Shown: positions 1,919 through 42,332, counted from the stretch's first letter. The stretch: 64,000 bases of DNA from an uncultured Candidatus Saccharibacteria bacterium (GCA_964355795.1 CAYHEQ010000001.1:9849-73848), one strand, 5' to 3'. Made by a program: numbers and translations. Notes: generated from the letters alone by a model not told the origin.

Positions 1919-1975
1919 TTTAGTTTTCTACTATCTGTAATCAGTATGTCTGTACCATCCGTAATCCGTAGAAAA

Positions 1976-15675: not shown

Positions 15676-15800
15676 GCTTATTTTTTAGCGATGCTAATCT
15701 ACGAATAATATGCGCCTATAGCGAATGTCTATGCAAATAGATTCGCATTCCATTCGTAGATTCGCGCGCATTCGCATTTCATTAGCATCGCGCTATCATT
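15676..15800. repeat. GCGAAT-rich intergenic repeat locus with inverted termini AGCGATGCTAAT / ATTAGCATCGCGCT
   Basis: Multiple ATTCGCAT / TCGTAGATTCGC motifs. The termini are reverse complements of each other. Confidence 0.75.
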
Positions 15801-24414: not shown

Positions 24415-24487
24415 TTTGCAACTATGTAATTGCTTAAGCGATGCGAATCTACAAATAACATGCGAATATAGCGAATGTCTATGCGAA
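24415..24487. repeat. GCGAAT-rich repeat, left flank of the GxxExxY gene
   Basis: taagcgatgcgaatctacaaataacatgcgaatatagcgaatgtctatgcgaatc. Confidence 0.7.
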
Positions 24488-24844
24488 TCAAATTTTTGTA
24501 TTTAATATCCTATTGGGCTTAAGATGGCTATTTCTAAAATTAACTATCATCCCCAACTTCAAATTATTAATTTCTAGGTATCTTTTTACTTGAAAATAAT
24601 CTTCTTTGTCCGCAAAATTTTTTGCTTTGCATTCTACTACTATTTTATCTTCTATGAGAAAATCCATTCTATTCCCACTGCCATCATTTAATTCTCTTTT
24701 ATAAGCAACACCTTTATTCTGCAGTTCCTTCTCTATTTCATCACAATATTGTTTTTCTTTACAGAATCGCCCTAGTCTATTTTGAACTGCAAAAAATATC
24801 CCATTTATTTTGTAAGACAATTCCGGATAAATTACATCCTTCAT
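24488..24844 (-). CDS. GxxExxY-family protein (PD-(D/E)XK superfamily)
   Basis: INGIFFAVQNRLGRFCKEKQYCDEIEKEL ... IVVECKAKNF ... LKLGMIVNF fits the GxxExxY family profile. Confidence 0.65.
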   Translation of the reverse strand: MKDVIYPELSYKINGIFFAVQNRLGRFCKEKQYCDEIEKELQNKGVAYKRELNDGSGNRMDFLIEDKIVVECKAKNFADKEDYFQVKRYLEINNLKLGMIVNFRNSHLKPNRILNTKI

Positions 24845-33989: not shown

Positions 33990-34001
33990 TTTTTTCTTGT
34001 T

Positions 34002-34730
34002 TTATCCTCTTCTGTATGTCATCAATATCTGCTTCAACATCTCATCTTTTGGAATTTGAGCTGTTCCCTCTTCTAAAACTTTTATCGCTTCTGCTCTATT
34101 ATTTTCGAAATCTCTCAAAAGTACCGCTAGATTAACATAGGTGGCAGAAAAATGTGGGTCAATGGTGATGGCTTCGCGATAATGCTTTTTTGCTTCTTCG
34201 TATTTTTTTTCACTACGCAAAACATTGCCCAGATTATTATGCAAAATAGCGTCTTGAGGAGTTACTTTTACGGCTTGTGAGAAAAACTCCTCGGCTTTAC
34301 CCAAATCTCCAAGATTATAATAAGAAACGGCAAGTTTCTGTAAAACATCCTTGTTGTTAGGCTGTGTATTGATAACTTTTTCTAATTCTTCCACGGTTTC
34401 TTTGTATTTTTTTGTTTGCATTTCTGCGCTTATTGCCTGATCGCCACTTTTACCCATCGTTGCCTCCCTGTACGCATCCAGCCCATTCGCTAACCATTCC
34501 TGCGCTTTCACATCGCGCCAAATACGATATTTATTCAACAGAACATTCGCCAACAAAGATCCCCCATAAACCACAACTATAAGAATAATTATACTAATTA
34601 TAATTTTTGCTTTTTTATTAAAAATCTTCCTCTTTCTCTCCTCCCAATTTTTGTTTTTCTTTTTCATAAGTGAAATTTCTGTATCTGTAGTATATATTTC
34701 CTCATTTAGAGGTTCGACCTTAGTTTCCAA
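34002..34730 (-). CDS. TPR-repeat membrane protein (paralog)
   Basis: The first about 11 codons of the ORF are a hairpin repeat, so the start is likely MKKKNKNW at about 34667. One TM segment then TPR repeats (ILHNNLGNVLRSEKKYEEAKKHYREAITID). Confidence 0.65.
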   Translation of the reverse strand: METKVEPLNEEIYTTDTEISLMKKKNKNWEERKRKIFNKKAKIIISIIILIVVVYGGSLLANVLLNKYRIWRDVKAQEWLANGLDAYREATMGKSGDQAISAEMQTKKYKETVEELEKVINTQPNNKDVLQKLAVSYYNLGDLGKAEEFFSQAVKVTPQDAILHNNLGNVLRSEKKYEEAKKHYREAITIDPHFSATYVNLAVLLRDFENNRAEAIKVLEEGTAQIPKDEMLKQILMTYRRG

Positions 34731-34752
34731 ACTTCTCCGAGGCCAAATCTCT
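34708..34752. repeat. Hairpin repeat family copy (degenerate right arm)
   Basis: agaggttcgaccttagtttccaaacttctccgaggccaaatctc. Confidence 0.65.
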
Positions 34753-34781
34753 TATCCCTAATAATTTTTCTCAATCTCCGA

Positions 34782-35168
34782 CTATCCTATTGCTCCTACT
34801 TTGTGCATACTGCTTGCTTCTTCTTCACTCAAAATCCTTTTTCTTGCCAGAATACTTGTCAAAGTGTGTAGTTTTTGCGCTATTCTCCCCTCACTTTGCC
34901 TCACTCTTTTATCCGTCCAATCTTTGTTATTTCCTTCTGATTGCCTAATTTCTTGTTTTAATTCTTTTTCCATCGGTTCCAAAAAATTAACATTGAATTT
35001 AGCTAATTGATCCTTTACTACATCTTCAACTGAATCCTTGAATCTTTGACCCTCAAATATATTCTCTACGGCGTTCTTGAATTTCTCGCCAGCAAAAGAA
35101 TTCTCAATAACCCCCGTTACGATTTCCTTAATTTCCTCTCTGGTTGTGGTAATCTTTTTTTCTGACAT
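34782..35168 (-). CDS. Hypothetical protein
   Basis: 128-aa acidic/basic ORF with no known motif. Confidence 0.45.
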   Translation of the reverse strand: MSEKKITTTREEIKEIVTGVIENSFAGEKFKNAVENIFEGQRFKDSVEDVVKDQLAKFNVNFLEPMEKELKQEIRQSEGNNKDWTDKRVRQSEGRIAQKLHTLTSILARKRILSEEEASSMHKVGAIG

Positions 35169-35179
35169 TTTTGCTAAAA

Positions 35180-35383
35180 TTAAACATTCACCGCGCGCTT
35201 GGCTATAATTTTCGTTGCTTTTCCGCAGTTACCGCAATATTGCTCGTTATCGTCTAGTATACATTTACAATTCAAACATCTTTTGGCGGTTTTCTTTGGC
35301 AACCTTAAGCCACACCCAGTACAAAATTGGTCACTATATCCTTTCCAGTATTGTTTTTTGCACTGCGGACATTTCTTGAACAT
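35180..35383 (-). CDS. Double zinc-ribbon small protein
   Basis: CPQCKK...CTGCG and CLNCKC...CGNCG. Confidence 0.5.
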   Translation of the reverse strand: MFKKCPQCKKQYWKGYSDQFCTGCGLRLPKKTAKRCLNCKCILDDNEQYCGNCGKATKIIAKRAVNV

Positions 35384-35543
35384 ATGTCTTCTCTAAAATC
35401 TTTTTTCTAATATCCATTTTTTTACAAATTACGGTAATATCTTTTGCCATAGACTTTCCTCTACTTTTCCTTTTTGTTTTTTTTGATTCACTATATTGTG
35501 TACTTTGATCCCTTATTTTCTTAATTTCTTATTTTCTTAGCCC

Positions 35544-36095
35544 CTACGGCGCCAAAGTGTCCAAGACGATGAACGAATCGCCAGATTTGGCGGAATAGTT
35601 GCACCAGATCATATCCCCGGAATAGCCCGTTACTATGGCAGTGGCGCAACCCCCCGTTGTTGGCGCAGAAGCGGTAGTGCCATCAGAGCCAGCCTTCATA
35701 CCGCTATATTTGAATCCTGTCGGTGTGGAGAATTTGACATCTGTGGACTTGGCTAAACTTTCAGGATTGTTGACGGTTAAAGTGAATTTGACTGTATCGC
35801 CCGCTTTCGCCGTCGCCGTGTTGTTTCGCGCAGATACTGGCGCGATGTTTTCTGCCTTCGTATGCACCGAAACACCTTGATAATTGAAATTGTAGCCGAC
35901 ATCAATAGGTTGTCTATCGGCCGCGAATGTTCCCAGTTTGAATCCTCCCAAGGCCACGCCAGCCAAAAGCAAAAGGCCTACTACATATATAGTAGCCTTT
36001 CTGTTGGAAAGTTTTTTGGAAAAACCCTTGAGAGTGGAGGCTCTTTTGATGCGATTGCTCCTGCGCACGATTTTTTCAAAATTGAAAGATAACAT
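35544..36095 (-). CDS. Secreted/membrane-anchored protein with Thr/Ala-rich beta domain
   Basis: Signal anchor IYVVGLLLLAGVALGGF. DUF11-like composition. Confidence 0.5.
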   Translation of the reverse strand: MLSFNFEKIVRRSNRIKRASTLKGFSKKLSNRKATIYVVGLLLLAGVALGGFKLGTFAADRQPIDVGYNFNYQGVSVHTKAENIAPVSARNNTATAKAGDTVKFTLTVNNPESLAKSTDVKFSTPTGFKYSGMKAGSDGTTASAPTTGGCATAIVTGYSGDMIWCNYSAKSGDSFIVLDTLAP

Positions 36096-36180
36096 CTTTT
36101 TTGTATTACTGTTATGAAAATTTTGTTTTGAAATATCTATTGCTAACTGACATTAAGCCTGACTTAAAATCTTGCTGAAC

Positions 36181-36430
36181 CGATGCTAATCTGCGAATGG
36201 ATGCCTGCCCGCAATGCTCTCGCCCGAAGCTTTCATATCTGTTTACAATTATCGTACGCAATATTTAGGGAGCAAACAATATGGGTGGGGCGCATAGCGA
36301 GGCGGGCGGGCGAATATGGCGAATATTTATGCGAATTAATTCGCATGGGATTCGTAAATTCGCATCGCGTTCGTAGATTCGCATGGCATTTCAAATTCGC
36401 ATCGCATTATTCGTGTCGCTTAACTCAAAA
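36181..36430. repeat. GCGAAT-rich repeat locus containing the second 115-bp MITE-like element copy (36201..36315)
   Basis: atgcctgcccgcaatgctctcgcccgaagctttcatatctgtttacaattatcgtacgcaatatttagggagcaaacaatatgggtggggcgcatagcgaggcgggcgggcgaat, followed by four ATTCGCAT octamers. Confidence 0.8.
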
Positions 36431-36608
36431 CCAAGACAGAAATATCTCCCTTTTGCGTCTTCTCGACTGAAAATCACACTCCTTAACCCATTCCTTTATT
36501 ATCTAGCGTTGTCTCTATTATAGACGATAAGTCCACCCCTACAAGAGCCGATTTATCCCCAAGCTCGTAACAGAAATGGCCTCAAAACTTGAAGCCATTT
36601 CTGCGCAA

Positions 36609-36790
36609 ACAGGGGCGGAAGTCGCAACTTTACATCGGGAGAAACTGATCAGTTTGCGTTTTTGGCAGGGGCTGAGGGAATCGAACCCCCGACCTCGGTT
36701 TTGTCCCGACGATTGCAGGGCAATGTCGGGATCCCGATCCTCCGATGCAAAATCGGAGCGTCGGGAGAGACCGATAAGTTTGCGTTTTTA
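36609..36790 (-). other. Two tRNA 3'-end-like fragments with no 5' halves (pseudo-tRNA or att-site remnants) downstream of tRNA-Trp, with an internal TCGGGATCCCGA palindrome
   Basis: 36663..36700 encodes GGGGGUUCGAUUCCCUCAGCCCCUGCCA, which is a T-arm, acceptor 3' strand and CCA. No matching 5' acceptor strand exists. 36609..36629 is a degenerate copy of the tRNA-Trp 3' end. Direct repeat GATMAGTTTGCGTTTTT at 36645 and 36773. Confidence 0.5.
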
Positions 36791-36791
36791 A

Positions 36792-36862
36792 CAGGGGCGG
36801 TAGGAGTCGAACCCACACTATTGGTTTTGGAGACCAACGTTCTACCGCTAAACTACGCCCCT
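36792..36862 (-). tRNA. tRNA-Trp (anticodon CCA)
   Basis: The cloverleaf folds by hand: acceptor AGGGGCG/CGCCCCU, anticodon stem UUGGU/ACCAA, loop CUCCAAA, T-loop UUCGACU. Confidence 0.85.
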
Positions 36863-36927
36863 ATTCTAAGAACGGTTTTGCCTTAATATTCGAGCGATTA
36901 GCGTTAATTCGAGAAAATTAGCGATTC

Positions 36928-37101
36928 CTATTTCCCCTCTTTGTGCTTCGTCACCTTCCTGCATCGCTTGCACTTTTTATTCAATTCCAATCTCTCCGTC
37001 GTATTGCGTTTGTTTTTGGAAGTGAAATAATTTTTTTCTTTGCAAACGGTGCATTCCATTGTCACCATCCCTCTTGGTCCTCTTTTCTTTTTTCCTGGCA
37101 T
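36928..37101 (-). CDS. rpmG: 50S ribosomal protein L33
   Basis: [40 protein letters not shown] matches the L33 consensus (C..C...NY.T.KNKRN..ERLEL.K.C..C...T.H.E.K). The ORF-track N-terminal extension to 37203 runs through tRNA-derived sequence and is artefactual. The true start may be further downstream at 37059 or 37068. Confidence 0.6.
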
Positions 37102-37136
37102 AAAATTTGTATTAAGTATTAAGATTTCTATCAAAA

Positions 37137-37184
37137 TGACGGGAGTAGGATTTGCACCTACGAAGGCCGAAGCCAGCAGATTTA
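37137..37184 (-). other. Exact 44-nt duplicate of the 3' part of tRNA-Tyr (3' part of anticodon loop through acceptor 3' strand) with no 5' half
   Basis: gggagtaggatttgcacctacgaaggccgaagccagcagattta is identical to 37248..37291 of the intact tRNA-Tyr. It is joined directly to a double-hairpin element. Confidence 0.75.
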
Positions 37185-37214
37185 TCACCCTGCGGGTGAC
37201 CACCCGTAGGGTGG
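37185..37214. repeat. 30-nt double-hairpin element, copy 1 (TCACCC-tgc-GGGTGA / CCACCC-gta-GGGTGG)
   Basis: tcaccctgcgggtgaccacccgtagggtgg. It sits exactly at an anticodon-loop position (GACU | element | UAAAUCU). Confidence 0.75.
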
Positions 37215-37243
37215 CAGTCTTCTTTAACCAATGATTTTCAAAA

Positions 37244-37326
37244 TGGCGGGAGTAGGATTTGCACCTACGAAGGCCGAAGCCAGCAGATTTACAGTCTGCC
37301 CTCGTTGACTACTTGAGTATCCCGCC
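37244..37326 (-). tRNA. tRNA-Tyr (anticodon GTA), class II with long variable arm
   Basis: Acceptor GGCGGGA/UCCCGCC, anticodon stem GCAGA/UCUGC with loop CUGUAAA, variable arm GGC-UUCG-GCC. The T-loop UGCAAAU is atypical. Confidence 0.75.
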
Positions 37327-37342
37327 ACCATTTTGAAAATCA

Positions 37343-37606
37343 TTAAATTCCCAATCTTTTAAAAAGCATCTCCTTTTGCTGGTTGTTATTTTTAAGCTCA
37401 TTTTCTCTTTTTCTAGCCAGAGTATATGTTTCGTAAGCTTCATAGTATACGAGCCTTAATGGCGCATACATTTTGGTCGAAATAACTTTTTTGTTATTAT
37501 GTTGCAATAATCTCGTTTTCAAATCACGCGTCGAACCTATATAGCGCCATTTTTTTATGGTACTTTTCAATAAGTATACATATCCATTCATATTGTTTTC
37601 TTGCAA
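37343..37606 (-). CDS. Small GIY-YIG nuclease-domain protein (YhbQ/UPF0213-like)
   Basis: GYVYLLKS...YIGSTRDLKTRLLQHNN...YYEAYET...ARKRENELK is the GIY-YIG signature. ATG at 37591 is the likely start; 37606 is a TTG. Confidence 0.7.
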   Translation of the reverse strand: MQENNMNGYVYLLKSTIKKWRYIGSTRDLKTRLLQHNNKKVISTKMYAPLRLVYYEAYETYTLARKRENELKNNNQQKEMLFKRLGI

Positions 37607-37618
37607 ATAAGAGATTTA

Positions 37619-37648
37619 TCACCCTGCGGGTGACCACCCGTAGGGTGG
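37619..37648. repeat. 30-nt double-hairpin element, copy 2 (identical to copy 1)
   Basis: tcaccctgcgggtgaccacccgtagggtgg, directly 3' of a tRNA-Tyr-like 5' half. Confidence 0.75.
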
Positions 37649-37683
37649 CAGTCTGCCCCGTTTGACCGCTTCGGTACCCCACC
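37649..37683 (-). other. Orphan tRNA-Tyr-like 5' half (acceptor through anticodon nt 33), truncated by the double-hairpin element
   Basis: GGUGGGGUACCGAAGCGGUCAAACGGGGCAGACU closely resembles the canonical bacterial tRNA-Tyr 5' half. No partner 3' half with a CCCCACC acceptor strand is present. Confidence 0.65.
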
Positions 37684-37728
37684 ATTTTGGTAATTATCAA
37701 ATTCCTAATCCTTGCCTAAAGCCCACGA

Positions 37729-37768
37729 GCAGGGTTGAACTGCTGACCTTTTCCTTACCATGCTTGCC
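37729..37768 (-). other. Degenerate partial copy of tRNA-Thr(GGT) (T-arm to anticodon loop)
   Basis: agggttgaactgctgaccttttccttaccatg compared with agggttgaactcgagaccttcaccttaccatg in the intact gene. Confidence 0.6.
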
Positions 37769-37779
37769 CGCCTATGCAA

Positions 37780-37852
37780 AGCCGTTGTCGAGGGTTGAAC
37801 TCGAGACCTTCACCTTACCATGGTGACGCTCTACCAACTGAGCTACAACGGC
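37780..37852 (-). tRNA. tRNA-Thr (anticodon GGT)
   Basis: GCCGUUG acceptor, D-loop AGUUGGUA, anticodon stem UCACC/GGUGA with loop AUGGUAA, T-loop UUCAACC. Confidence 0.85.
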
Positions 37853-37889
37853 ATAGGCTTTGGCGGGCGGGGAAATGCTCTACCAACTG

Positions 37890-37920
37890 CCACCCCTGCG
37901 GGTGGTCACCCGAAGGGTGA
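37890..37920. repeat. Double-hairpin element, copy 3 (inverted, loop variants), next to a duplicated tRNA-Thr D-arm fragment
   Basis: ccacccctgcgggtgg tcacccgaagggtga. The stems are conserved and the loop nucleotides changed. It is preceded by tgctctaccaactg, a partial copy of the tRNA-Thr D-arm. Confidence 0.7.
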
Positions 37921-37937
37921 AGCTACTCCTTGCCAAA

Positions 37938-38009
37938 AGCCACCTGTCGGGCTCGAACCGACGACCTACCGCTTACAAGGCGGTTGCTCTACCACTGAGC
38001 TAAGGTGGC
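37938..38009 (-). tRNA. tRNA-Thr (anticodon TGT)
   Basis: GCCACCU acceptor, anticodon stem ACCGC/GCGGU with loop CUUGUAA, T-loop UUCGAGC. Confidence 0.85.
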
Positions 38010-38072
38010 CCGAAAACCACTGCCTGCCCCGACCATGGCGTCGGGGAGCTAAGGTGGCAAATCTACAAAAAA

Positions 38073-38759
38073 TTATTCCACCCGCAATTCCGCCATTTTT
38101 TCCGTCGCTTCTTTAATCAATTGCTGATAATCCTCATTATCTTTTTCCAAAACTAAAGCTTTCTTGTAGCTATCCAAAGCCTTGTCATACTGCCGTAAAG
38201 CCGCGTAAGATAACCCCAGATTGATATAGCGATGAGGCACCAAACCATTGAGCTGAATAGATCTCTGATACGCCTCTATCGCTTCCACGTATCGCCCTTG
38301 ATTGAAAAGCGCCAAGCCAAGATTGTTGTGAATCAGATCATTGTTTTTGTCATACTTCAAAGCCGTCCTGAAAGCTTCTTTGGCGTCAGCGAAATTTTCC
38401 TGTTCTATATATATAACGCCCAATTTGTTGTAAAGCTTAGGATTTTTCGGATCTTTCTCAATAGTAGAAATTAAAATCTTTTCCGCCTCTGTATGATTTT
38501 TCTGATCGATCAATTCTCCCACTTTTTCCAACACTTCGTCGGCAGAATTGCTTTTCTGTTTGACAAATCTCGGGATGGACTTGCTGGTTTTTTTACTCTT
38601 TTTACCGTTGGTTTCTTCGGAAGCTTCGTATCTATTGAGCTTCGCCTCGCCATTACTATTGCCCCGCCTTTTCAAAAGCTCCTCGGAAACTTCTGGCATT
38701 TTGCGAGCCACAACAAAAACCAACGCCGCCAATGCTACAACTAGAATGATGATTTCCAT
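38073..38759 (-). CDS. TPR-repeat membrane protein (paralog)
   Basis: N-terminal TM segment (IIILVVALAALVFVV), then three or four TPR repeats (LYNKLGVIYIEQENFADAKEAFRTALKYD ...). Confidence 0.65.
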   Translation of the reverse strand: MEIIILVVALAALVFVVARKMPEVSEELLKRRGNSNGEAKLNRYEASEETNGKKSKKTSKSIPRFVKQKSNSADEVLEKVGELIDQKNHTEAEKILISTIEKDPKNPKLYNKLGVIYIEQENFADAKEAFRTALKYDKNNDLIHNNLGLALFNQGRYVEAIEAYQRSIQLNGLVPHRYINLGLSYAALRQYDKALDSYKKALVLEKDNEDYQQLIKEATEKMAELRVE

Positions 38760-38884
38760 ATACTTTTAGTTAATAGCGATGCGAATGATACGAATTTTTC
38801 ATGCGAATATGGCGAATCCCTATGCGAATCCAATTTGCATGAATATTCGTAGATTCGCATGTCATTCGTAGATTAGCATCGCGT
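38760..38884. repeat. GCGAAT-rich repeat locus with inverted termini
   Basis: agcgatgcgaatgatacgaat ... ttcgtagattcgcatgtcattcgtagattagcatcgcg. Confidence 0.75.
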
Positions 38885-39727
38885 TTATGAAATGAACAGA
38901 TTCTCAAAAAAAATCCTCTTGGAGGCATTACTCTCCAAGGCGCTTTCCACTTTCAACAGCTTTTCCAAAACCTTGGCTATTCTACCATAAGGCAATGATT
39001 TTTCCAAGTCTCCCCAAGAATCTTTTTCAAAATCCCCCAATTCCCCTATCCCTTGCGTATTCAAAGCCAAATTTCTCAAAACCCAAATCATCATATCAAT
39101 GTCTTTTTGCGGTTCTTCTTTCTCCGCCAGCTCCTTGGCTCTGATTAATTTCAAGAAATCTTTTTCGGATAACAAATCACGGCAAATAGCGATGGCGTTT
39201 CCCCCTTCTTCTCCGTCTGTTGCGGAAAAATCTTCGTAAAAATAGACTGATTGCGCTCGAGACAAAATAGTCTTGGGCATACCGCTCTTATCCCCAGCGG
39301 TTAAGATGATGATAGACTTCGCCGGTGGTTCCTCCAGGGTTTTGAGGAGCGCCTCACAAGCTTCATTGGTCAGCTTCTCCGCATTGTTTATTATCAGAAA
39401 TTTCCACTCGCCCTTGGAGCGAGAAAGATTGATGCCCCTTTGCGCCTCCCGAATATCGTCTATCAAAATATGCTCGTCGCCTTTGTCTATCATATGAGTA
39501 TCAACAAAGGTGCCCGACGAAGCTAGGCGACAATGATGACATTTTCCACAAGGGCTATCCCCCTTCCTTTCTTGACATTGAAAATATTGGGAAAGATATT
39601 TGGCAAAATCTTTCTTCTTTTCGCCCTTTGGACCGTAAAAAATATAGGCGTGAGAAAGCCTCTCTGACTCCAAAGCTTTTTGAAAAAATCCCAATTGTCT
39701 CGGGTATTCTTCTTTAATATCCACCAT
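38885..39727 (-). CDS. holB: DNA polymerase III delta-prime subunit
   Basis: HAYIFYGPKG Walker A-like, zinc module C..C..C..C, EACEALLKTLEEPP box. Confidence 0.8.
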   Translation of the reverse strand: MVDIKEEYPRQLGFFQKALESERLSHAYIFYGPKGEKKKDFAKYLSQYFQCQERKGDSPCGKCHHCRLASSGTFVDTHMIDKGDEHILIDDIREAQRGINLSRSKGEWKFLIINNAEKLTNEACEALLKTLEEPPAKSIIILTAGDKSGMPKTILSRAQSVYFYEDFSATDGEEGGNAIAICRDLLSEKDFLKLIRAKELAEKEEPQKDIDMMIWVLRNLALNTQGIGELGDFEKDSWGDLEKSLPYGRIAKVLEKLLKVESALESNASKRIFFENLFIS

Positions 39728-39860
39728 AGAAGATTATTATACCATTTCTCCAAATATGGTATACTAGGTTCTACGGATTACAGATAGTACAGATGTACGG
39801 ATAATGCAAACATATCCTATCTGTAATCTGTAAATCCGTATTATCCGTAATCCGTAGAGT

Positions 39861-40178
39861 ATGAAATTTGAAGACAAAGAATTAGAATGCCAAGATTGCG
39901 GAGCCAAATTCACTTGGGATGCTTCCGAACAAGCTTATTTTGCCAAAAAAGGCTTCAAAGAAGTTCCTCGCCGTTGTCGCGCCTGTCGAGCGAAAAAGAA
40001 AATTGAAAAGGAAGCCGAAGAGGCTAAGGAAAAAGAAATCACCTGCGCTATTTGCGGAGTCAAATCAGTATCAACGCACGAGATAGCTCCGGATGAAGAA
40101 ACGATATGTATGGACTGCGTTCTGAAAGAACAAATGGAGCCAACTGTTGCCCCTCCGCTAGAAACCCCAGCAACCTAG
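39861..40178 (+). CDS. Zinc-ribbon protein (two CxxC pairs twice)
   Basis: CQDCGAK...CRACRAK and CAICG...CMDC. Confidence 0.5.
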   Translation: MKFEDKELECQDCGAKFTWDASEQAYFAKKGFKEVPRRCRACRAKKKIEKEAEEAKEKEITCAICGVKSVSTHEIAPDEETICMDCVLKEQMEPTVAPPLETPAT

Positions 40179-40195
40179 AACCGACCTAGAACAAA

Positions 40196-40226
40196 AAAGA
40201 GATTCCTAACGGAATTTCTTTTTTCA
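40196..40226. terminator. Bidirectional terminator hairpin between the zinc-ribbon gene and rpmB
   Basis: aaaaagagattcctaacggaatttctttttt is a stem-loop flanked by A-runs and T-runs. Confidence 0.5.
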
Positions 40227-40271
40227 TACTATCATTTTTCTCACCAGAGATTAGAAGCTAAAAACTGAAAA

Positions 40272-40460
40272 CTATAAACTAATTTTCCCCTTGCTTTTCA
40301 TACACTTCGTACACAGCTTCACGCGAATCTTCTTCCCGCGGATTATTAGGCTGGTTGGCTGAATATTGGCGTTGAAAACTCTTCTCGTATGACGATTGGA
40401 GTGACTAACGTTATTGCCGGTCGTTCTCGTTTTTCCGCATGCTTGACACATCTTTGACAT
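40272..40460 (-). CDS. rpmB: 50S ribosomal protein L28
   Basis: MSKMCQACGKTRTTGNNVSHSNRHTRRVF matches L28 (M.K.C...GK....GN.VSHS). GAGG RBS 7 nt upstream of the ATG at 40460. The ORF-track extension to 40535 is probably not translated. Confidence 0.7.
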   Translation of the reverse strand: MSKMCQACGKTRTTGNNVSHSNRHTRRVFNANIQPTSLIIRGKKIRVKLCTKCMKSKGKISL

Positions 40461-40559
40461 TGTTGTTTCCCTCAAGTAATATGGATAATAGAAATGTAAC
40501 TTAGTTATTTTATCAAAAAGATTTGCTTTTGGCAAGAAGGAAAGGCAAAGGAAAGATAT

Positions 40560-41246
40560 ATGTTGCTCCTCAATCTATTCTCCCAGCCTCTTGACCTCGC
40601 GGCGGTTTTGATCGCCATCGTCATCGGTCTGACTGTCCACGAATTTGCTCACGCTTGGATGGCGGCTCGCCTCGGCGACTTGACCGCCAAATACGCGGGA
40701 AGATTATCTTTGAATCCTTCGCGTCATTTTGATTTCACCGGCACATTATTTTTGCTTTTGGTCGGCTTTGGTTGGGGCAAGCCAGTGCCGATCAATCCCA
40801 ACGCTCTGCACGGTCGCTACGCTGAACTCAAAGTTTCCTTGGCTGGACCTTTTTCTAATATTTTAATGGCGCTCATTTGCTCCATCCCTATCGCTATCGC
40901 CTTGGGACTCGGCCTCTCTTACGAAGCTAATATCTATCTGCATTTCATTAGGGTTATCGCGGAGATCAATGTTTTCTTTGCCGCCTTCAATCTCTTACCT
41001 ATCTTTCCGCTGGATGGATCGGCCATCATCAAAGCTCTCGCGCCTCGCTCTTGGCATTATAAATTAGCCGATTGGGAGAGATCCGGTATCATCATTCTTT
41101 TTGGCATCCTTTTTGTGGAAATGGTCTTTCGCATCAATATCCTTTTTCCTTTTATTTATGCAATCAGCAGATTTTTTCTTTTCATTATCGCTTTTGTTTT
41201 GCAACCATTTTCGTATCTCTCCGCATATCTCTCTTCCCTATTTTAA
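40560..41246 (+). CDS. Membrane zinc metalloprotease (HExxH; site-2 protease/M50-like)
   Basis: HEFAHAWMAARLGD in the first TM region, multiple TM segments, and LPIFPLDGS, which is similar to the M50 LDG motif. Confidence 0.6.
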   Translation: MLLLNLFSQPLDLAAVLIAIVIGLTVHEFAHAWMAARLGDLTAKYAGRLSLNPSRHFDFTGTLFLLLVGFGWGKPVPINPNALHGRYAELKVSLAGPFSNILMALICSIPIAIALGLGLSYEANIYLHFIRVIAEINVFFAAFNLLPIFPLDGSAIIKALAPRSWHYKLADWERSGIIILFGILFVEMVFRINILFPFIYAISRFFLFIIAFVLQPFSYLSAYLSSLF

Positions 41247-41360
41247 TCGCGATGCGAATAGCGCAAATTTGAAATGCCGTGCGAATATAACGAATTTTTA
41301 TACTAATAATCTCGTTCGCATAAGATTCGTAGATTCGCATACCATTCGTAGATTAGCATC
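41240..41360. repeat. GCGAAT-rich repeat locus with inverted termini
   Basis: cgcgatgcgaatagcgcaaat ... ttcgtagattcgcataccattcgtagattagcatcgc. Confidence 0.75.
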
Positions 41361-41394
41361 GCTTGTGTTGTTAAGTCGTTGCACGCGCAAAAAA

Positions 41395-41600
41395 ATTTCA
41401 GTATAATCATAATATCCACAGTATCAGACGAAACCTGTTCTGTGGATGGGATGAGCTAAGATCGACCTACACTATAATCGAGGGAGTCCAACATAGATAC
41501 TTGCCCGCGATTCGTTCGTAGCATTTATTTGCGGACACCCACCTAGATTTCCTAGGTCATCGATCTTTCTTTCGTCCCATCCATAGAGTAGGTTTTTTTA
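41395..41600 (+). ncRNA. Candidate structured non-coding region (unassigned) ending in a T-run, upstream of tRNA-Pro
   Basis: No ORF. Local stem CCACAG...CUGUGG. Long-range pairing GGAUGGGAUGAG (41444..) with CGUCCCAUCCAU (41576..). Hairpin CCUAGAUUUCCUAGG. Ends with GGUUUUUUUAUUUG. Confidence 0.25.
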
Positions 41601-41638
41601 TTTGAAAAAATCAGGTATAATATTTTTGCTTCTTTTCT

Positions 41639-41709
41639 CGGAGCGTAGCATAATGGTAGTGTGCACGCATGGGGTGCGTGTGGCCCGGGTTCGATTCCCG
41701 GCGTTCCGA
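41639..41709 (+). tRNA. tRNA-Pro (anticodon GGG)
   Basis: Acceptor CGGAGCG/CGUUCCG, anticodon stem CACGC/GCGUG with loop AUGGGGU (G37), T-arm CCGGG-UUCGAUU-CCCGG. TATAAT box about 20 nt upstream. Confidence 0.8.
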
Positions 41710-41738
41710 TTCAATTCGCATATAACTAAATCCATATT

Positions 41739-42332
41739 ATGAAAAGTTACAACAAGGTTAAAGAGCTACCTTTCCAAGAGCTCAAGGGAATTTCTGCCAA
41801 AACGATGGAGGTTCATTTTGGCAAACTTTATCAGGGCTATGTGAAAAAATGGCAAGAGATTCAGGACAAGGTGGCTAACGCCGACCAAGCTTCGGCCAAC
41901 GCCAGCTTCAGCGATTTGCGAGAGCTGAAATTGGAAGAAACCTTCACTGCTGACGCTATTCTCCTCCACGAAGCGTATTTTGACATCTTAGGTGGAGACG
42001 GTAAGCCAAGTGGAAGCATTATGGAGGCGATCGCCAAAGATTTTGGTTCTTTTGAGCAATGGGTAGAAGAATTCAAAGCCCTCGGTCTTTGCGCTCGCGG
42101 TTGGGTTATTCTAGCCTACGACTTCAATGACGGTCGGCTACGAAATTATACCGCCGACGCGCACAATCAAGGCGGTATCTGGGGTTCAGCGCCCATTGTC
42201 GTCCTCGATGTCTATGAACACGCCTACTTCATTGATTTCGGCTCCGACCGCAAAGCCTATATTGAAGCCTATTTTGAAAATCTCAATTGGGAAGCAGTAG
42301 AAAAAAAATGCACTAAGGTTAAAATAAACTAG
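41739..42332 (+). CDS. Fe/Mn superoxide dismutase
   Basis: HFGKLYQGYV N-terminal metal ligand region and DVYEHAYFIDFG C-terminal signature. Confidence 0.85.
   Translation: MKSYNKVKELPFQELKGISAKTMEVHFGKLYQGYVKKWQEIQDKVANADQASANASFSDLRELKLEETFTADAILLHEAYFDILGGDGKPSGSIMEAIAKDFGSFEQWVEEFKALGLCARGWVILAYDFNDGRLRNYTADAHNQGGIWGSAPIVVLDVYEHAYFIDFGSDRKAYIEAYFENLNWEAVEKKCTKVKIN

Follow-up and report, generated by a model that had tools for sequence, protein, structure and literature searches.

A GIY-YIG nuclease, double-hairpin and replacement-tRNA cassette set into tRNA genes of Saccharibacteria and other bacteria

The phage T4 gene segB is a free-standing GIY-YIG homing gene located among tRNA genes, and is thought to spread with the flanking tRNA DNA by break-induced gene conversion (PMC2330249). 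A second point of reference is provided by the double-hairpin elements (DHEs) of fungal mitochondria (Paquin et al, 2000). As summarised in PMC10085805, these are GC-rich sequences of ~30–35 nt made of two adjacent hairpins with conserved stems and variable loops, which occur as identical copies across species, are located between genes or within RNA genes, and invade each other; they are suspected to be mobile, by means of an unknown enzyme. Here we analysed 64,000 nt of DNA from an uncultured Candidatus Saccharibacteria bacterium (GCA_964355795.1 CAYHEQ010000001.1:9849-73848; hereafter the window). On its minus strand, between the end of a tetratricopeptide repeat (TPR) gene (38073) and ~36608, lies an island of tRNA genes and tRNA fragments that contains a stand-alone GIY-YIG nuclease gene and copies of a ~30-nt double hairpin, which we call E. 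We show that the tRNA-Tyr locus of this island is a nuclease plus tRNA module set into an older tRNA-Tyr between G34 and U35, with E at both junctions, and that modules of this type are widespread, occupy many tRNAs, form tandem and nested arrays, and cross phylum boundaries.

E shares with DHEs the ~30-nt GC-rich two-hairpin form, loops more variable than stems, dispersal and nested copies; the likeness is one of analogy, and the host is bacterial rather than organellar. For DHEs no such link to a GIY-YIG gene or to partial tRNA duplications is reported. In common with segB, the locus has a GIY-YIG nuclease gene amid tRNA genes. SegB, however, is a two-domain, site-specific phage enzyme with no split tRNA halves, hairpin element or replacement tRNA, whereas the cassette protein is a bare 82-aa Slx1-like domain encoded in cellular genomes of the Candidate Phyla Radiation (CPR), and E is absent from IMG/VR viral contigs.

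Mobile endonuclease open reading frames (ORFs) of fungal mitochondria, such as the Allomyces atp6 insert and the Glomus mobile ORFs, carry with them a duplicate of the host-gene end that they displace. They resemble the cassette in that insertion is tolerated via a replacement part while the displaced part stays as a pseudo-fragment, and differ in having organellar protein-coding targets and larger enzymes and in replacing a C-terminal coding end, not a whole tRNA. Short dispersed hairpin-forming repeats include the repetitive extragenic palindromes and bacterial interspersed mosaic elements (REP/BIME) with their associated tyrosine transposases (RAYT), the IS200/IS605-derived palindromic elements and the Rickettsia palindromic elements. 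Elements of the IS200/IS605 type insert without target duplication beside a short specific sequence, and the Rickettsia elements can occupy RNA genes. Compared with REP/RAYT-type repeats, E lacks a GTAG head, has only two 6-bp hairpins and is consistently coupled to partial tRNA copies, and its sole recurrent neighbour gene is the GIY-YIG nuclease; no Y1/HUH transposase gene was noticed among the genes beside E, where only GIY-YIG was searched systematically. Finally, integrative elements at tRNA attachment (att) sites leave a 3′ copy at the far end of a kilobase-scale element, and the incoming DNA restores the gene. The loci described here likewise combine an intact gene with incomplete tRNA copies whose break falls in the anticodon or T loop, but many of these copies are 5′ parts, down to 12 nt in length, the "element" may measure less than 100 nt, and there is no linked integrase. 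In none of the compared systems is a bare Slx1-like nuclease combined with both a double hairpin and an entire replacement tRNA. We found no published account of a cassette with GIY-YIG gene, hairpin and tRNA in the open-access full-text literature; this cassette, a free-standing nuclease unit that makes up for the gene it breaks, is apparently undescribed.

The best-preserved unit spans 37131..37713 on the minus strand and consists, in order, of the remnant of an older nuclease gene, a tRNA-Tyr 5′ half, E, 7 nt, the GIY-YIG gene, an intact tRNA-Tyr, a 28-nt spacer, 6 nt, E again and a tRNA-Tyr 3′ part (Table 1). The 7 nt past the first E (37612..37618, taaatct) are the continuation of tRNA-Tyr, and the 6 nt between the spacer and the second E (agactg, 37215..37220) are anticodon-arm sequence, so that AGACTG-E-TAAATCT forms an exact 43-nt direct repeat (37178..37220 and 37612..37654). 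In the 3′ part the lone mismatch to the intact gene lies at 37139, leaving 45 nt exact. The orphan 5′ half, in contrast, is diverged, with compensatory changes in the D stem (CCG/CGG versus CTC/GAG), and its acceptor strand (GGTGGGG) can pair with that of the 3′ part (TCCCGTC) only through three G-U wobble pairs. Judged by their sequences, the two orphan parts do not match each other and trace back to separate tRNA-Tyr lineages. The segment 37679..37713, which includes the older nuclease remnant, is 83% identical to the end and leader of the live GIY-YIG gene and tRNA (37325..37359). The function of tRNA-Tyr is retained in the cell, since a complete gene for it comes with the module. Among all loci, only the window has E junctions on both sides of the GIY-YIG–tRNA pair.

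The live tRNA-Tyr is enclosed by a 20-nt inverted repeat (37325..37344 / 37230..37249) that lengthens its acceptor stem. Similar pairing of leader and trailer, adding 8–20 bp to the acceptor stem, was observed for other cassette tRNAs (Thr-GGT of the window, 37853..37870 / 37765..37779; L096, L061 and L098, the L numbers denoting loci in other assemblies), so that the tRNA looks as though placed at the end of a long hairpin; this may be a processing feature or an insertion footprint.

The same architecture was found elsewhere. A tRNA fragment, a GC-rich double hairpin, 5–7 nt, a GIY-YIG gene and an intact tRNA of the same kind follow one another at dozens of loci in the CPR and at some in Bacteroidota. 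At least 11 tRNA species are involved, the hairpin families are interchangeable, and some of the units form tandem arrays. These locus sets were chosen by E or by GIY-YIG similarity, so the fractions below are enrichments and not genome-wide frequencies; taxon labels of metagenome-assembled genomes (MAGs) are as deposited. Using a hidden Markov model built from the window protein and its 13 homologues, we detected a GIY-YIG ORF adjoining E at ~15 genome loci and within 250 nt of E at 22 of 122 metagenome E sites, among the matches listed. When downstream sequence was available, 38 of 54 GIY-YIG genes were followed on the same strand by an intact tRNA starting within ~230 nt, mostly within 25 nt. 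These 38 tRNAs have 11 anticodons (Glu-TTC 20, Asp 4, Pro-GGG 3, Phe 3, Ser-GGA 2, Tyr 2, and others). Read in the orientation of the nuclease gene, the layout is a tRNA 5′ part, E, 5–7 nt more of the tRNA, 9–50 nt to the start codon, GIY-YIG, a few nt and the intact same-kind tRNA, and the inner flank measured 5–7 nt in 20 of 21 GIY-YIG-containing cassettes.

E lay inside a partial copy of the adjacent intact tRNA in 48 cases. The partial copy was upstream and a 5′ part in 35 of them, broken at position 12, ~35 or 58, and downstream and a 3′ part in the other 13, broken at ~35 or 53–56. Mirror-image junctions (GIY-YIG, tRNA, spacer, 6–19 nt, E, tRNA 3′ end) were seen in L085, L096 and L123. 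Identity between the orphan part and the live tRNA ranged from 100% (L042, L048, L081) to 75% in the window, with a diverged pair also in L052; judging from sequence, this range fits both within-population and cross-lineage events. Two loci labelled Saccharibacteria (L042) and Portnoybacteria (L056) share the same 35-nt tRNA-Glu(TTC) 5′ part and have GIY-YIG proteins 79% identical, a likeness that suggests either cassette exchange between distant CPR lineages or mis-binning.

A search for further copies of the hairpin, which the first-pass annotation of the window had noticed at three places, showed that it is dispersed in many genomes and metagenomes. The pattern CCACCC-N3-GGGTGG-TCACCC-N3-GGGTGA occurs 3 times in the 64 kb against 0.00 expected (100 shuffles), at 92 places in the one-per-species genomes of GTDB (nearly all CPR, few Bacteroidota, several genomes with many copies, one Bacteroidota copy on a 4.8-Mb contig) and at no fewer than 120 places in JGI metagenomes. 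No match was found among IMG/VR viral contigs, which speaks against carriage of E by phages. The stems are fixed, the first loop reads TNC and the second GNA with few exceptions, and the whole is nearly self-reverse-complementary, with one long hairpin as an alternative fold. No known RNA family other than tRNAs, a weak 6S-like match and noise was found by Rfam at 34000..42000, E-value up to 1.

The flanks of E have the consensus TTG / E / AA(A/C). By inspection, its sites are T loops (GGAATCG / E / AACCC), anticodon loops, the starts of D loops (TCGTC / E / TAATGG) and the loops of unrelated hairpins, and about a third of the flanks match tRNAs by BLAST, with junctions at positions 12–18, 35–39 and 53–58. 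In L034 an empty hairpin (gtaacgagg-aaaga-cctcgttac) adjoins its filled counterpart (gtaacgagg-E-aaaga-cctcgttac) without target duplication. Together with the anticodon loop of the window, this pair of filled and empty hairpins shows that E is an exact 30-nt insertion with no target duplication, in which it departs from classical miniature inverted-repeat transposable elements (MITEs). E is unlikely to be a fixed regulatory signal of the GIY-YIG gene, such as a ribosome-binding site or leader: it stands 9–50 nt from the start codon, occurs in both orientations relative to the gene (about 22 to 6), and is replaced by other hairpins in other cassettes.

Such hairpins were apparent in four homologues picked by protein similarity alone, without reference to E. 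L106 (70% identity) carries three tandem units of a tRNA-Ser(GGA) 5′ half, the double hairpin TCCCCCtacGGGGGA-TCCCTCgaaGAGGGA, gaaagc and GIY-YIG, followed by an intact tRNA-Ser; its hairpin is of the TCCCCC/TCCCTC type, followed by those 6 nt. A further tRNA-Tyr locus, L108 (72% identity), shows TCACCC hairpins in single and triple form. In L109 a TCGCCC/TCAACC double hairpin stands with GIY-YIG and tRNA-Ser, and the parts of L113 are a tRNA-Trp half, a hairpin of 11 bp, GIY-YIG and tRNA-Trp. In addition, a blind scan of 724 kb of loci for perfect 6-bp/3-nt double hairpins returned ~19 GC-rich 30-nt elements besides E with different stems, most commonly TCCGCC/GGCGGA. As the scan required perfect pairing, compensatory change can be judged without bias only from the hairpins upstream of GIY-YIG genes. 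Strict co-evolution of nuclease and hairpin could be rejected, as the closest GIY-YIG relatives of the window (69–72%) carry TCCCCC/TCCCTC, TCGCCC/TCAACC or single TCACCC hairpins. GIY-YIG clades track one tRNA, namely Tyr (window, L108), Ser (L106, L109) or Glu (L042, L056, L028), but do not track one hairpin family.

Several further observations concern these families. The 30-nt family made of TCCGCC-N3-GGCGGA twice occurs in the same CPR genomes as E (L010, L011, L018, L055, L064, L066, L069, L084, L089), some copies lying in tRNA loops or upstream of GIY-YIG genes (L064). In L108 (1300..1960) single TCACCC-GNA-GGGTGA hairpins take the place of 7 nt of a tRNA-Tyr anticodon arm and a triple array is also present, and in L187 (360..480) one hairpin is nested in the loop of another (TCACCC-ggacGGCCttcgGGCCt-GGGTGA, twice); the hairpin units are thus modular. 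The elements can also sit in or extend coding sequence, since the 3′ end of a called NUDIX gene in L109 (1038..1499) runs through the TCGCCC/TCAACC double hairpin.

The nuclease of the window matches Pfam PF01541 with E = 1e-14 over profile positions 1–74 of 78, and residues of catalytic type (Y4, Y6, Y17, G19, R27, H31, E63) are invariant across 14 homologues, which on sequence grounds places it in the GIY-YIG nuclease superfamily. The closest solved sequence by phmmer is UPF0213 BH0048 (PDB 1zg2; E = 5e-4). An AlphaFold2 model (mean confidence, pLDDT, 94.7) has the topology beta-beta-alpha-alpha-beta-alpha-alpha, and Foldseek matched it best to UPF0213 and to the Slx1 nuclease domain (Slx1: TM score 0.70–0.74, root-mean-square deviation 1.7–2.3 Å, 26–31% identity), far better than to I-TevI (TM score 0.44). 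No domain beyond the catalytic core was found in the Pfam search or the model. With 82 aa, a single domain and a fold closer to Slx1/UPF0213 than to I-TevI, the protein is a member of the stand-alone Slx1-like/UPF0213 branch. Slx1 is a structure-specific nuclease acting on branched DNA. Its stand-alone prokaryotic relatives represent the minimal form of the fold, and their function is unknown (PMC1564403). The family comprises 2,743 clusters at 50% identity (E-value ≤1e-3). The GC content of the gene is 31.7%, against 43.1% for the window.

The remainder of the island consists of other tRNA genes that are accompanied by fragments. The hairpin at 38027..38045 follows immediately on the orphan Thr-TGT 5′ end, which corresponds to a D-loop break past position 13. 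The third copy of E has as its host a 19-nt D-arm fragment of tRNA-Thr(GGT) (37921..37926 plus 37877..37889), broken between positions 12 and 13, with the flanks gtagct / E / cagttggtagagc. The leader and trailer of the intact Thr-GGT gene pair with each other (gcctatgc / gcataggc), and its diverged 3′ copy has preserved the T stem through compensatory changes. As stems have been kept by such changes in the diverged fragments, these derive from other functional tRNAs and not from decay of the neighbouring gene. The double hairpin of the second type directly precedes and abuts the tRNA-Trp 3′ copy.

Table 1. Features of the tRNA island, in window coordinates, listed in minus-strand order
Feature	Position	Strand	Evidence
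tRNA-Thr(TGT) 5′ duplicate (orphan 5′ end, positions 1-13)	38046..38058	-	exact 13-nt repeat of 37997..38009
GC-rich hairpin CCCGAC-6 nt-GTCGGG	38027..38045	-	sequence reading; DNA fold -5.6 kcal/mol
tRNA-Thr(TGT), intact	37937..38010	-	ARAGORN; Rfam 73.2 bits
E3 (third double-hairpin copy, 31 nt, opposite orientation)	37890..37920	+	repeat and pattern searches
tRNA-Thr(GGT), intact	37780..37852	-	ARAGORN, Rfam
tRNA-Thr(GGT) diverged 3′ part, anticodon loop to 3′ end	37718..37762	-	76% identity to 37778..37822
Older GIY-YIG gene 3′-end remnant and tRNA leader (aaggattaggaatttga..., cf. KRLGI-stop)	37685..37713	-	
Orphan tRNA-Tyr 5′ half (to G34), older diverged tRNA-Tyr	37649..37684	-	75% identity to intact gene
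E1 (30 nt, CCACCC-tac-GGGTGG TCACCC-gca-GGGTGA)	37619..37648	-	between G34 and U35
GIY-YIG nuclease gene, stand-alone, 82 aa (UPF0213/Slx1-like)	37343..37591	-	Pfam PF01541
Replacement tRNA-Tyr(GTA), intact	37243..37327	-	ARAGORN, Rfam; starts 16 nt past GIY-YIG stop
E2, identical to E1	37185..37214	-	repeat and pattern searches
tRNA-Tyr 3′ part (U35 to 3′ end, +7 nt downstream)	37131..37184	-	53/54 vs 37238..37291
rpmG (ribosomal protein L33), host gene within island, between Tyr and Trp	36928..37098	-	Pfam PF00471
tRNA-Trp(CCA), intact	36791..36863	-	ARAGORN, Rfam
Second-type double hairpin (7-bp and 12-bp hairpins)	36703..36758	-	DNA fold -17.2 kcal/mol, z = -5.0
Diverged tRNA-Trp 3′ part (from anticodon loop) and ~32 nt downstream flank	36635..36703	-	78% over 69 nt
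tRNA-Trp 3′ end, third short copy	36608..36621	-	13/14 identity

The anatomy given by the first-pass annotation was recovered throughout, some of it with other boundaries. ARAGORN and Rfam agreed on the four minus-strand tRNAs it had called intact (Thr-TGT, Thr-GGT, Tyr-GTA, Trp-CCA), and a repeat search found all the tRNA fragments it had listed, including the orphan Tyr 5′ half. The Tyr 3′ copy proved longer than the 44 nt (37141..37184) first reported. The degenerate Thr copy assigned to 37729..37768 is the Thr-GGT 3′ part and lies within somewhat different bounds, the exact Thr 5′ duplicate is 13 nt long and does not extend to 38059, and the two Trp 3′-end-like pieces are real but do not coincide with 36663..36700 and 36609..36629. 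Three double hairpins indeed mark tRNA breaks and two are identical, whereas the third, taken for 30 nt, is 1 nt longer owing to a 4-nt loop. The GIY-YIG gene had been started at 37606 and most likely begins with the ATG at 37591, which gives 82 aa as in its homologues.

Two side observations concern the wider window. A weak 6S RNA-like match (41429..41598, plus strand; 35 bits against a gathering threshold of 46.4, E = 2.5e-4) lies just upstream of tRNA-Pro(GGG) (41638..41710). Short intergenic repeats of ATTCGCAT-like units (e.g. AAATTCGCATCGCGTTCGTAGATTCGC) occur at 36310..36420, ~41315..41362, 15688..15748, 24437..24495 and 1931..1972, and may represent a promoter, an operator or another dispersed motif.

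Exact copies of the window proteins were found in the ENA assemblies Hain_H52 R1–R3 (Hainich groundwater well H52) and in one Logan assembly. The contigs of these three replicate ENA assemblies and the Logan assembly match the window at 99.9–100%, and one replicate contig (L001) covers 38691..37131, that is, both E copies and the Tyr 3′ copy; the arrangement is therefore not an artefact of this record. Independent short-read assemblies end exactly at the repeat boundaries 37131, 37173, 37356 and 37889..37892, and such cassettes are probably a systematic reason why contigs of CPR MAGs break off and why tRNAs in them are overlooked or counted wrongly.

More distant relatives were also sought. 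A metagenome scan for a sibling through the neighbouring holB protein found nothing, and an exact-protein look-up of the TPR neighbour returned the same locus only. Among the rpmG homologues were one syntenic relative (L098) and a contig of 395 nt (L105), whose 87 nt upstream of rpmG hold no Tyr fragment; the other contexts were unrelated. The comparison with relatives gave no clean empty/filled pair. L098 is a rearranged syntenic relative that has no tRNA-Tyr, GIY-YIG or E block upstream of rpmG. At 2640..2925 of L098 (Logan SRR12113420), an old tRNA-Thr(TGT) is split in the anticodon loop by a hairpin-embedded new tRNA-Thr(TGT), with no nuclease gene and no E. A separate hairpin (cctccggcccggaggg) lies in the D loop of the Thr 5′ fragment, and a tyrosine-integrase gene is located 370 nt upstream.

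Taken together, we consider it fairly likely that the island consists of accumulated insertions of small selfish cassettes, members of a family that resides in tRNA genes. The first-pass annotation had listed among its explanations a mobile cassette that carries a replacement tRNA-Tyr and a nuclease and splits tRNA-Tyr, and this one gained strong support from the recurrence of the layout in many unrelated loci and tRNA species. In the mechanism we propose, the predicted structure-specific nuclease, which has no DNA-binding domain, would break tRNA-gene DNA at or near an extruded loop or hairpin, and the break would be repaired by copying from cassette-bearing DNA, with the tRNA halves serving as homology arms in a homing-like, synthesis-dependent repair. 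The left end would pair with the donor's orphan 5′ part, synthesis would proceed through the hairpin, the nuclease gene and the live tRNA, and the new strand would anneal to the 3′ part of the recipient. Single-crossover integration of an excised circle via the 43-nt repeat would be an alternative route to the same product. Either way, a dead tRNA part would end up outside and a live tRNA beside the nuclease gene. The orphan would equal the live copy after within-population events and differ from it after cross-lineage events. Repeated rounds would give tandem or nested units, and cutting of the cassette's own live tRNA would give tandem arrays as in L106 or a nested older unit as in the window.

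The role of the hairpin is the least certain part of this mechanism. The double hairpin probably marks the dead copy, as a structure that is bound by the nuclease and/or that protects the dead copy against cutting or stops it from converting the live one; this proposal is based on its presence at every break, its fixed 5–7-nt offset and its near-symmetry. The constant gap of 5–7 nt that separates hairpin and cassette suggests cleavage or joining at a set distance, and the many solo E copies and units without GIY-YIG suggest that the hairpin can also move or be copied alone. More tentatively, and with less confidence than we place in the cassettes themselves, the hairpin and the 82-aa Slx1-like nuclease might form a new, minimal kind of mobile system that reads DNA shape (the loops of extruded hairpins or cloverleaves) and not a long sequence. 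The hairpin would then be the transposable or recognised unit, solo copies would be non-autonomous, the cut would fall 5–7 nt away, and cells would survive the invasion of essential tRNA genes through the copying in of a spare tRNA.

Several points weigh against the selfish-cassette explanation. The searches with holB, TPR and rpmG found no pair of otherwise identical alleles, empty and filled, for the Tyr cassette, and we therefore infer insertion from anatomy and recurrence. About 80% of E copies, among the matches listed, have no nearby GIY-YIG gene, and many lie outside tRNA-derived sequence. Units of fragment plus hairpin without GIY-YIG exist (L065, the second unit of L187, the Thr units of the window), so the nuclease is not needed in cis. 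The close GIY-YIG relatives in the window, L106 and L109 have different hairpins, which argues against strict sequence-specific recognition of E, and the 82-aa protein lacks a DNA-binding domain, in contrast to known homing GIY-YIG enzymes. Moreover, an occupied genome keeps an intact and presumably cleavable tRNA, so that simple homing needs an unexplained immunity or tolerated self-cleavage; the latter could explain the tandem arrays. Lastly, the orphan Tyr 3′ part is a near-copy of the cassette tRNA and not the partner of the 5′ half, which implies at least two events or a gene-conversion tract.

Some of these points would be accommodated if E itself were mobile in a MITE-like manner, targeting TTG^AAA in hairpin loops and being mobilised in trans, possibly by the GIY-YIG nuclease. 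Insertions into an essential tRNA would then survive only with a second copy of the tRNA part, either pre-existing or made by repair, and the fragments and the cassette would be survivors and by-products. The exact 30-nt insert without target duplication, the flank consensus, the solo copies (~80%, among the matches listed, many in non-tRNA hairpins), the nested, single and triple hairpins, the units without GIY-YIG (L065, L187) and the tRNA sequence found on both sides of E in every case are all in agreement with this account. It predicts, however, an intermediate in which E interrupts an otherwise complete tRNA, and this is essentially absent: deletion of E (29–31 nt, offsets up to 2 nt either way) followed by ARAGORN restored a tRNA at 1 of 96 sites, and that one is doubtful. 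In addition, the account does not explain the interchangeability of hairpin families, which differ at one and the same position between cassettes with closely related GIY-YIG genes; the regular 5–7-nt inner flank and the tight GIY-YIG-to-tRNA spacing indicate a unit, and, to our knowledge, GIY-YIG enzymes hydrolyse DNA and do not perform strand transfer. We therefore regard mobility of the hairpin as the primary event as rather unlikely.

The view that the fragments are scars of integrase-type insertions, also put forward in the first-pass annotation, would have them as leftover att sites of repeated tyrosine-integrase insertions and subsequent deletions, which hairpins colonised later, the GIY-YIG gene being a mere member of the tRNA operon. 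Anticodon and T loops, where many of the breaks lie, are classical sublocations of integrase crossover; L098 does have an integrase gene 370 nt from a fragmented tRNA-Thr cluster, and the Thr and Trp fragments of the window have no nuclease gene. This account nevertheless leaves the 5′ fragments, the hairpins at the breaks, the GIY-YIG linkage and the tandem arrays unexplained. Duplication of att sites does not yield 5′ parts upstream of the live gene (35 of the 48 partial copies), many broken at D-loop position 12, nor tandem arrays of 5′ half, hairpin and GIY-YIG, and independent cassettes, though their hairpins differ, have the hairpin at the break or within 5–7 nt of it. A tblastn search with the L098 integrase gave no hit in the 64-kb window (other integrase families were not searched). 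Overall, integrase scars appear improbable as the general explanation, but may account for the Thr and Trp fragments.

A split or intron-containing tRNA-Tyr, whose halves are expressed and joined or from which E is spliced, with the double hairpin as a processing signal, is very improbable. Removal of exactly 30 nt does give GCAGACUGUAAAUCU, and E folds stably. CPR bacteria are also known to carry group I introns in tRNA anticodon loops, although that recent preprint on Patescibacteria tRNA introns concerns elements distinct from the cassette (bioRxiv 10.1101/2025.07.03.662931). No group I intron (RF00028) matched within 34000..42000 at E-values up to 1, however, and the deletion test above restored a tRNA at 1 doubtful site of 96. 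An intact same-kind tRNA adjoins in the window and in the 48 partial-copy cases, the Tyr parts come from different lineages, with acceptor strands that pair only via three wobbles, and E is also found, in either orientation, in D loops, T loops and hairpins that do not belong to tRNAs. As for a split tRNA of the bulge-helix-bulge type, the flanks are identical and not complementary, and an intact tRNA-Tyr lies between the halves. Least credible of all is an assembly artefact, i.e. chimeric joins of strain variants in a low-coverage metagenome assembly: the independent contigs have only ~3–5x coverage and several end at the repeat boundaries named above, but the L001 contig, 99.9% identical, runs through the two E copies as well as the 3′ copy, disposing of the concern that the 44-nt identity was artefactual, and many unrelated assemblies share the architecture, some of them with contigs as long as 148 kb and 4.8 Mb.

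If the cassette moves as we propose, it would be among the smallest self-contained bacterial mobile units (~450 nt, comprising hairpin, 82-aa nuclease and tRNA) and would represent a new, splicing-independent means by which selfish DNA can reside in essential RNA genes. Should the system be guided by DNA shape, it would act as a "tRNA-gene replacement drive" between CPR lineages and into Bacteroidota, and a structure-guided nuclease with a fixed cutting offset could become a laboratory tool. It may also provide a lead to the as yet unidentified mobilising enzyme of fungal DHEs. For the CPR, the proposed cassettes would account for the many tRNA fragments and GC-rich hairpins in these genomes and would offer a route for horizontal replacement of tRNA genes, with consequences for tRNA-based phylogeny, tRNA counts in MAGs and assembly breaks. 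They would also provide the first biological context for the large uncharacterised family of UPF0213 and prokaryotic Slx1-like proteins.

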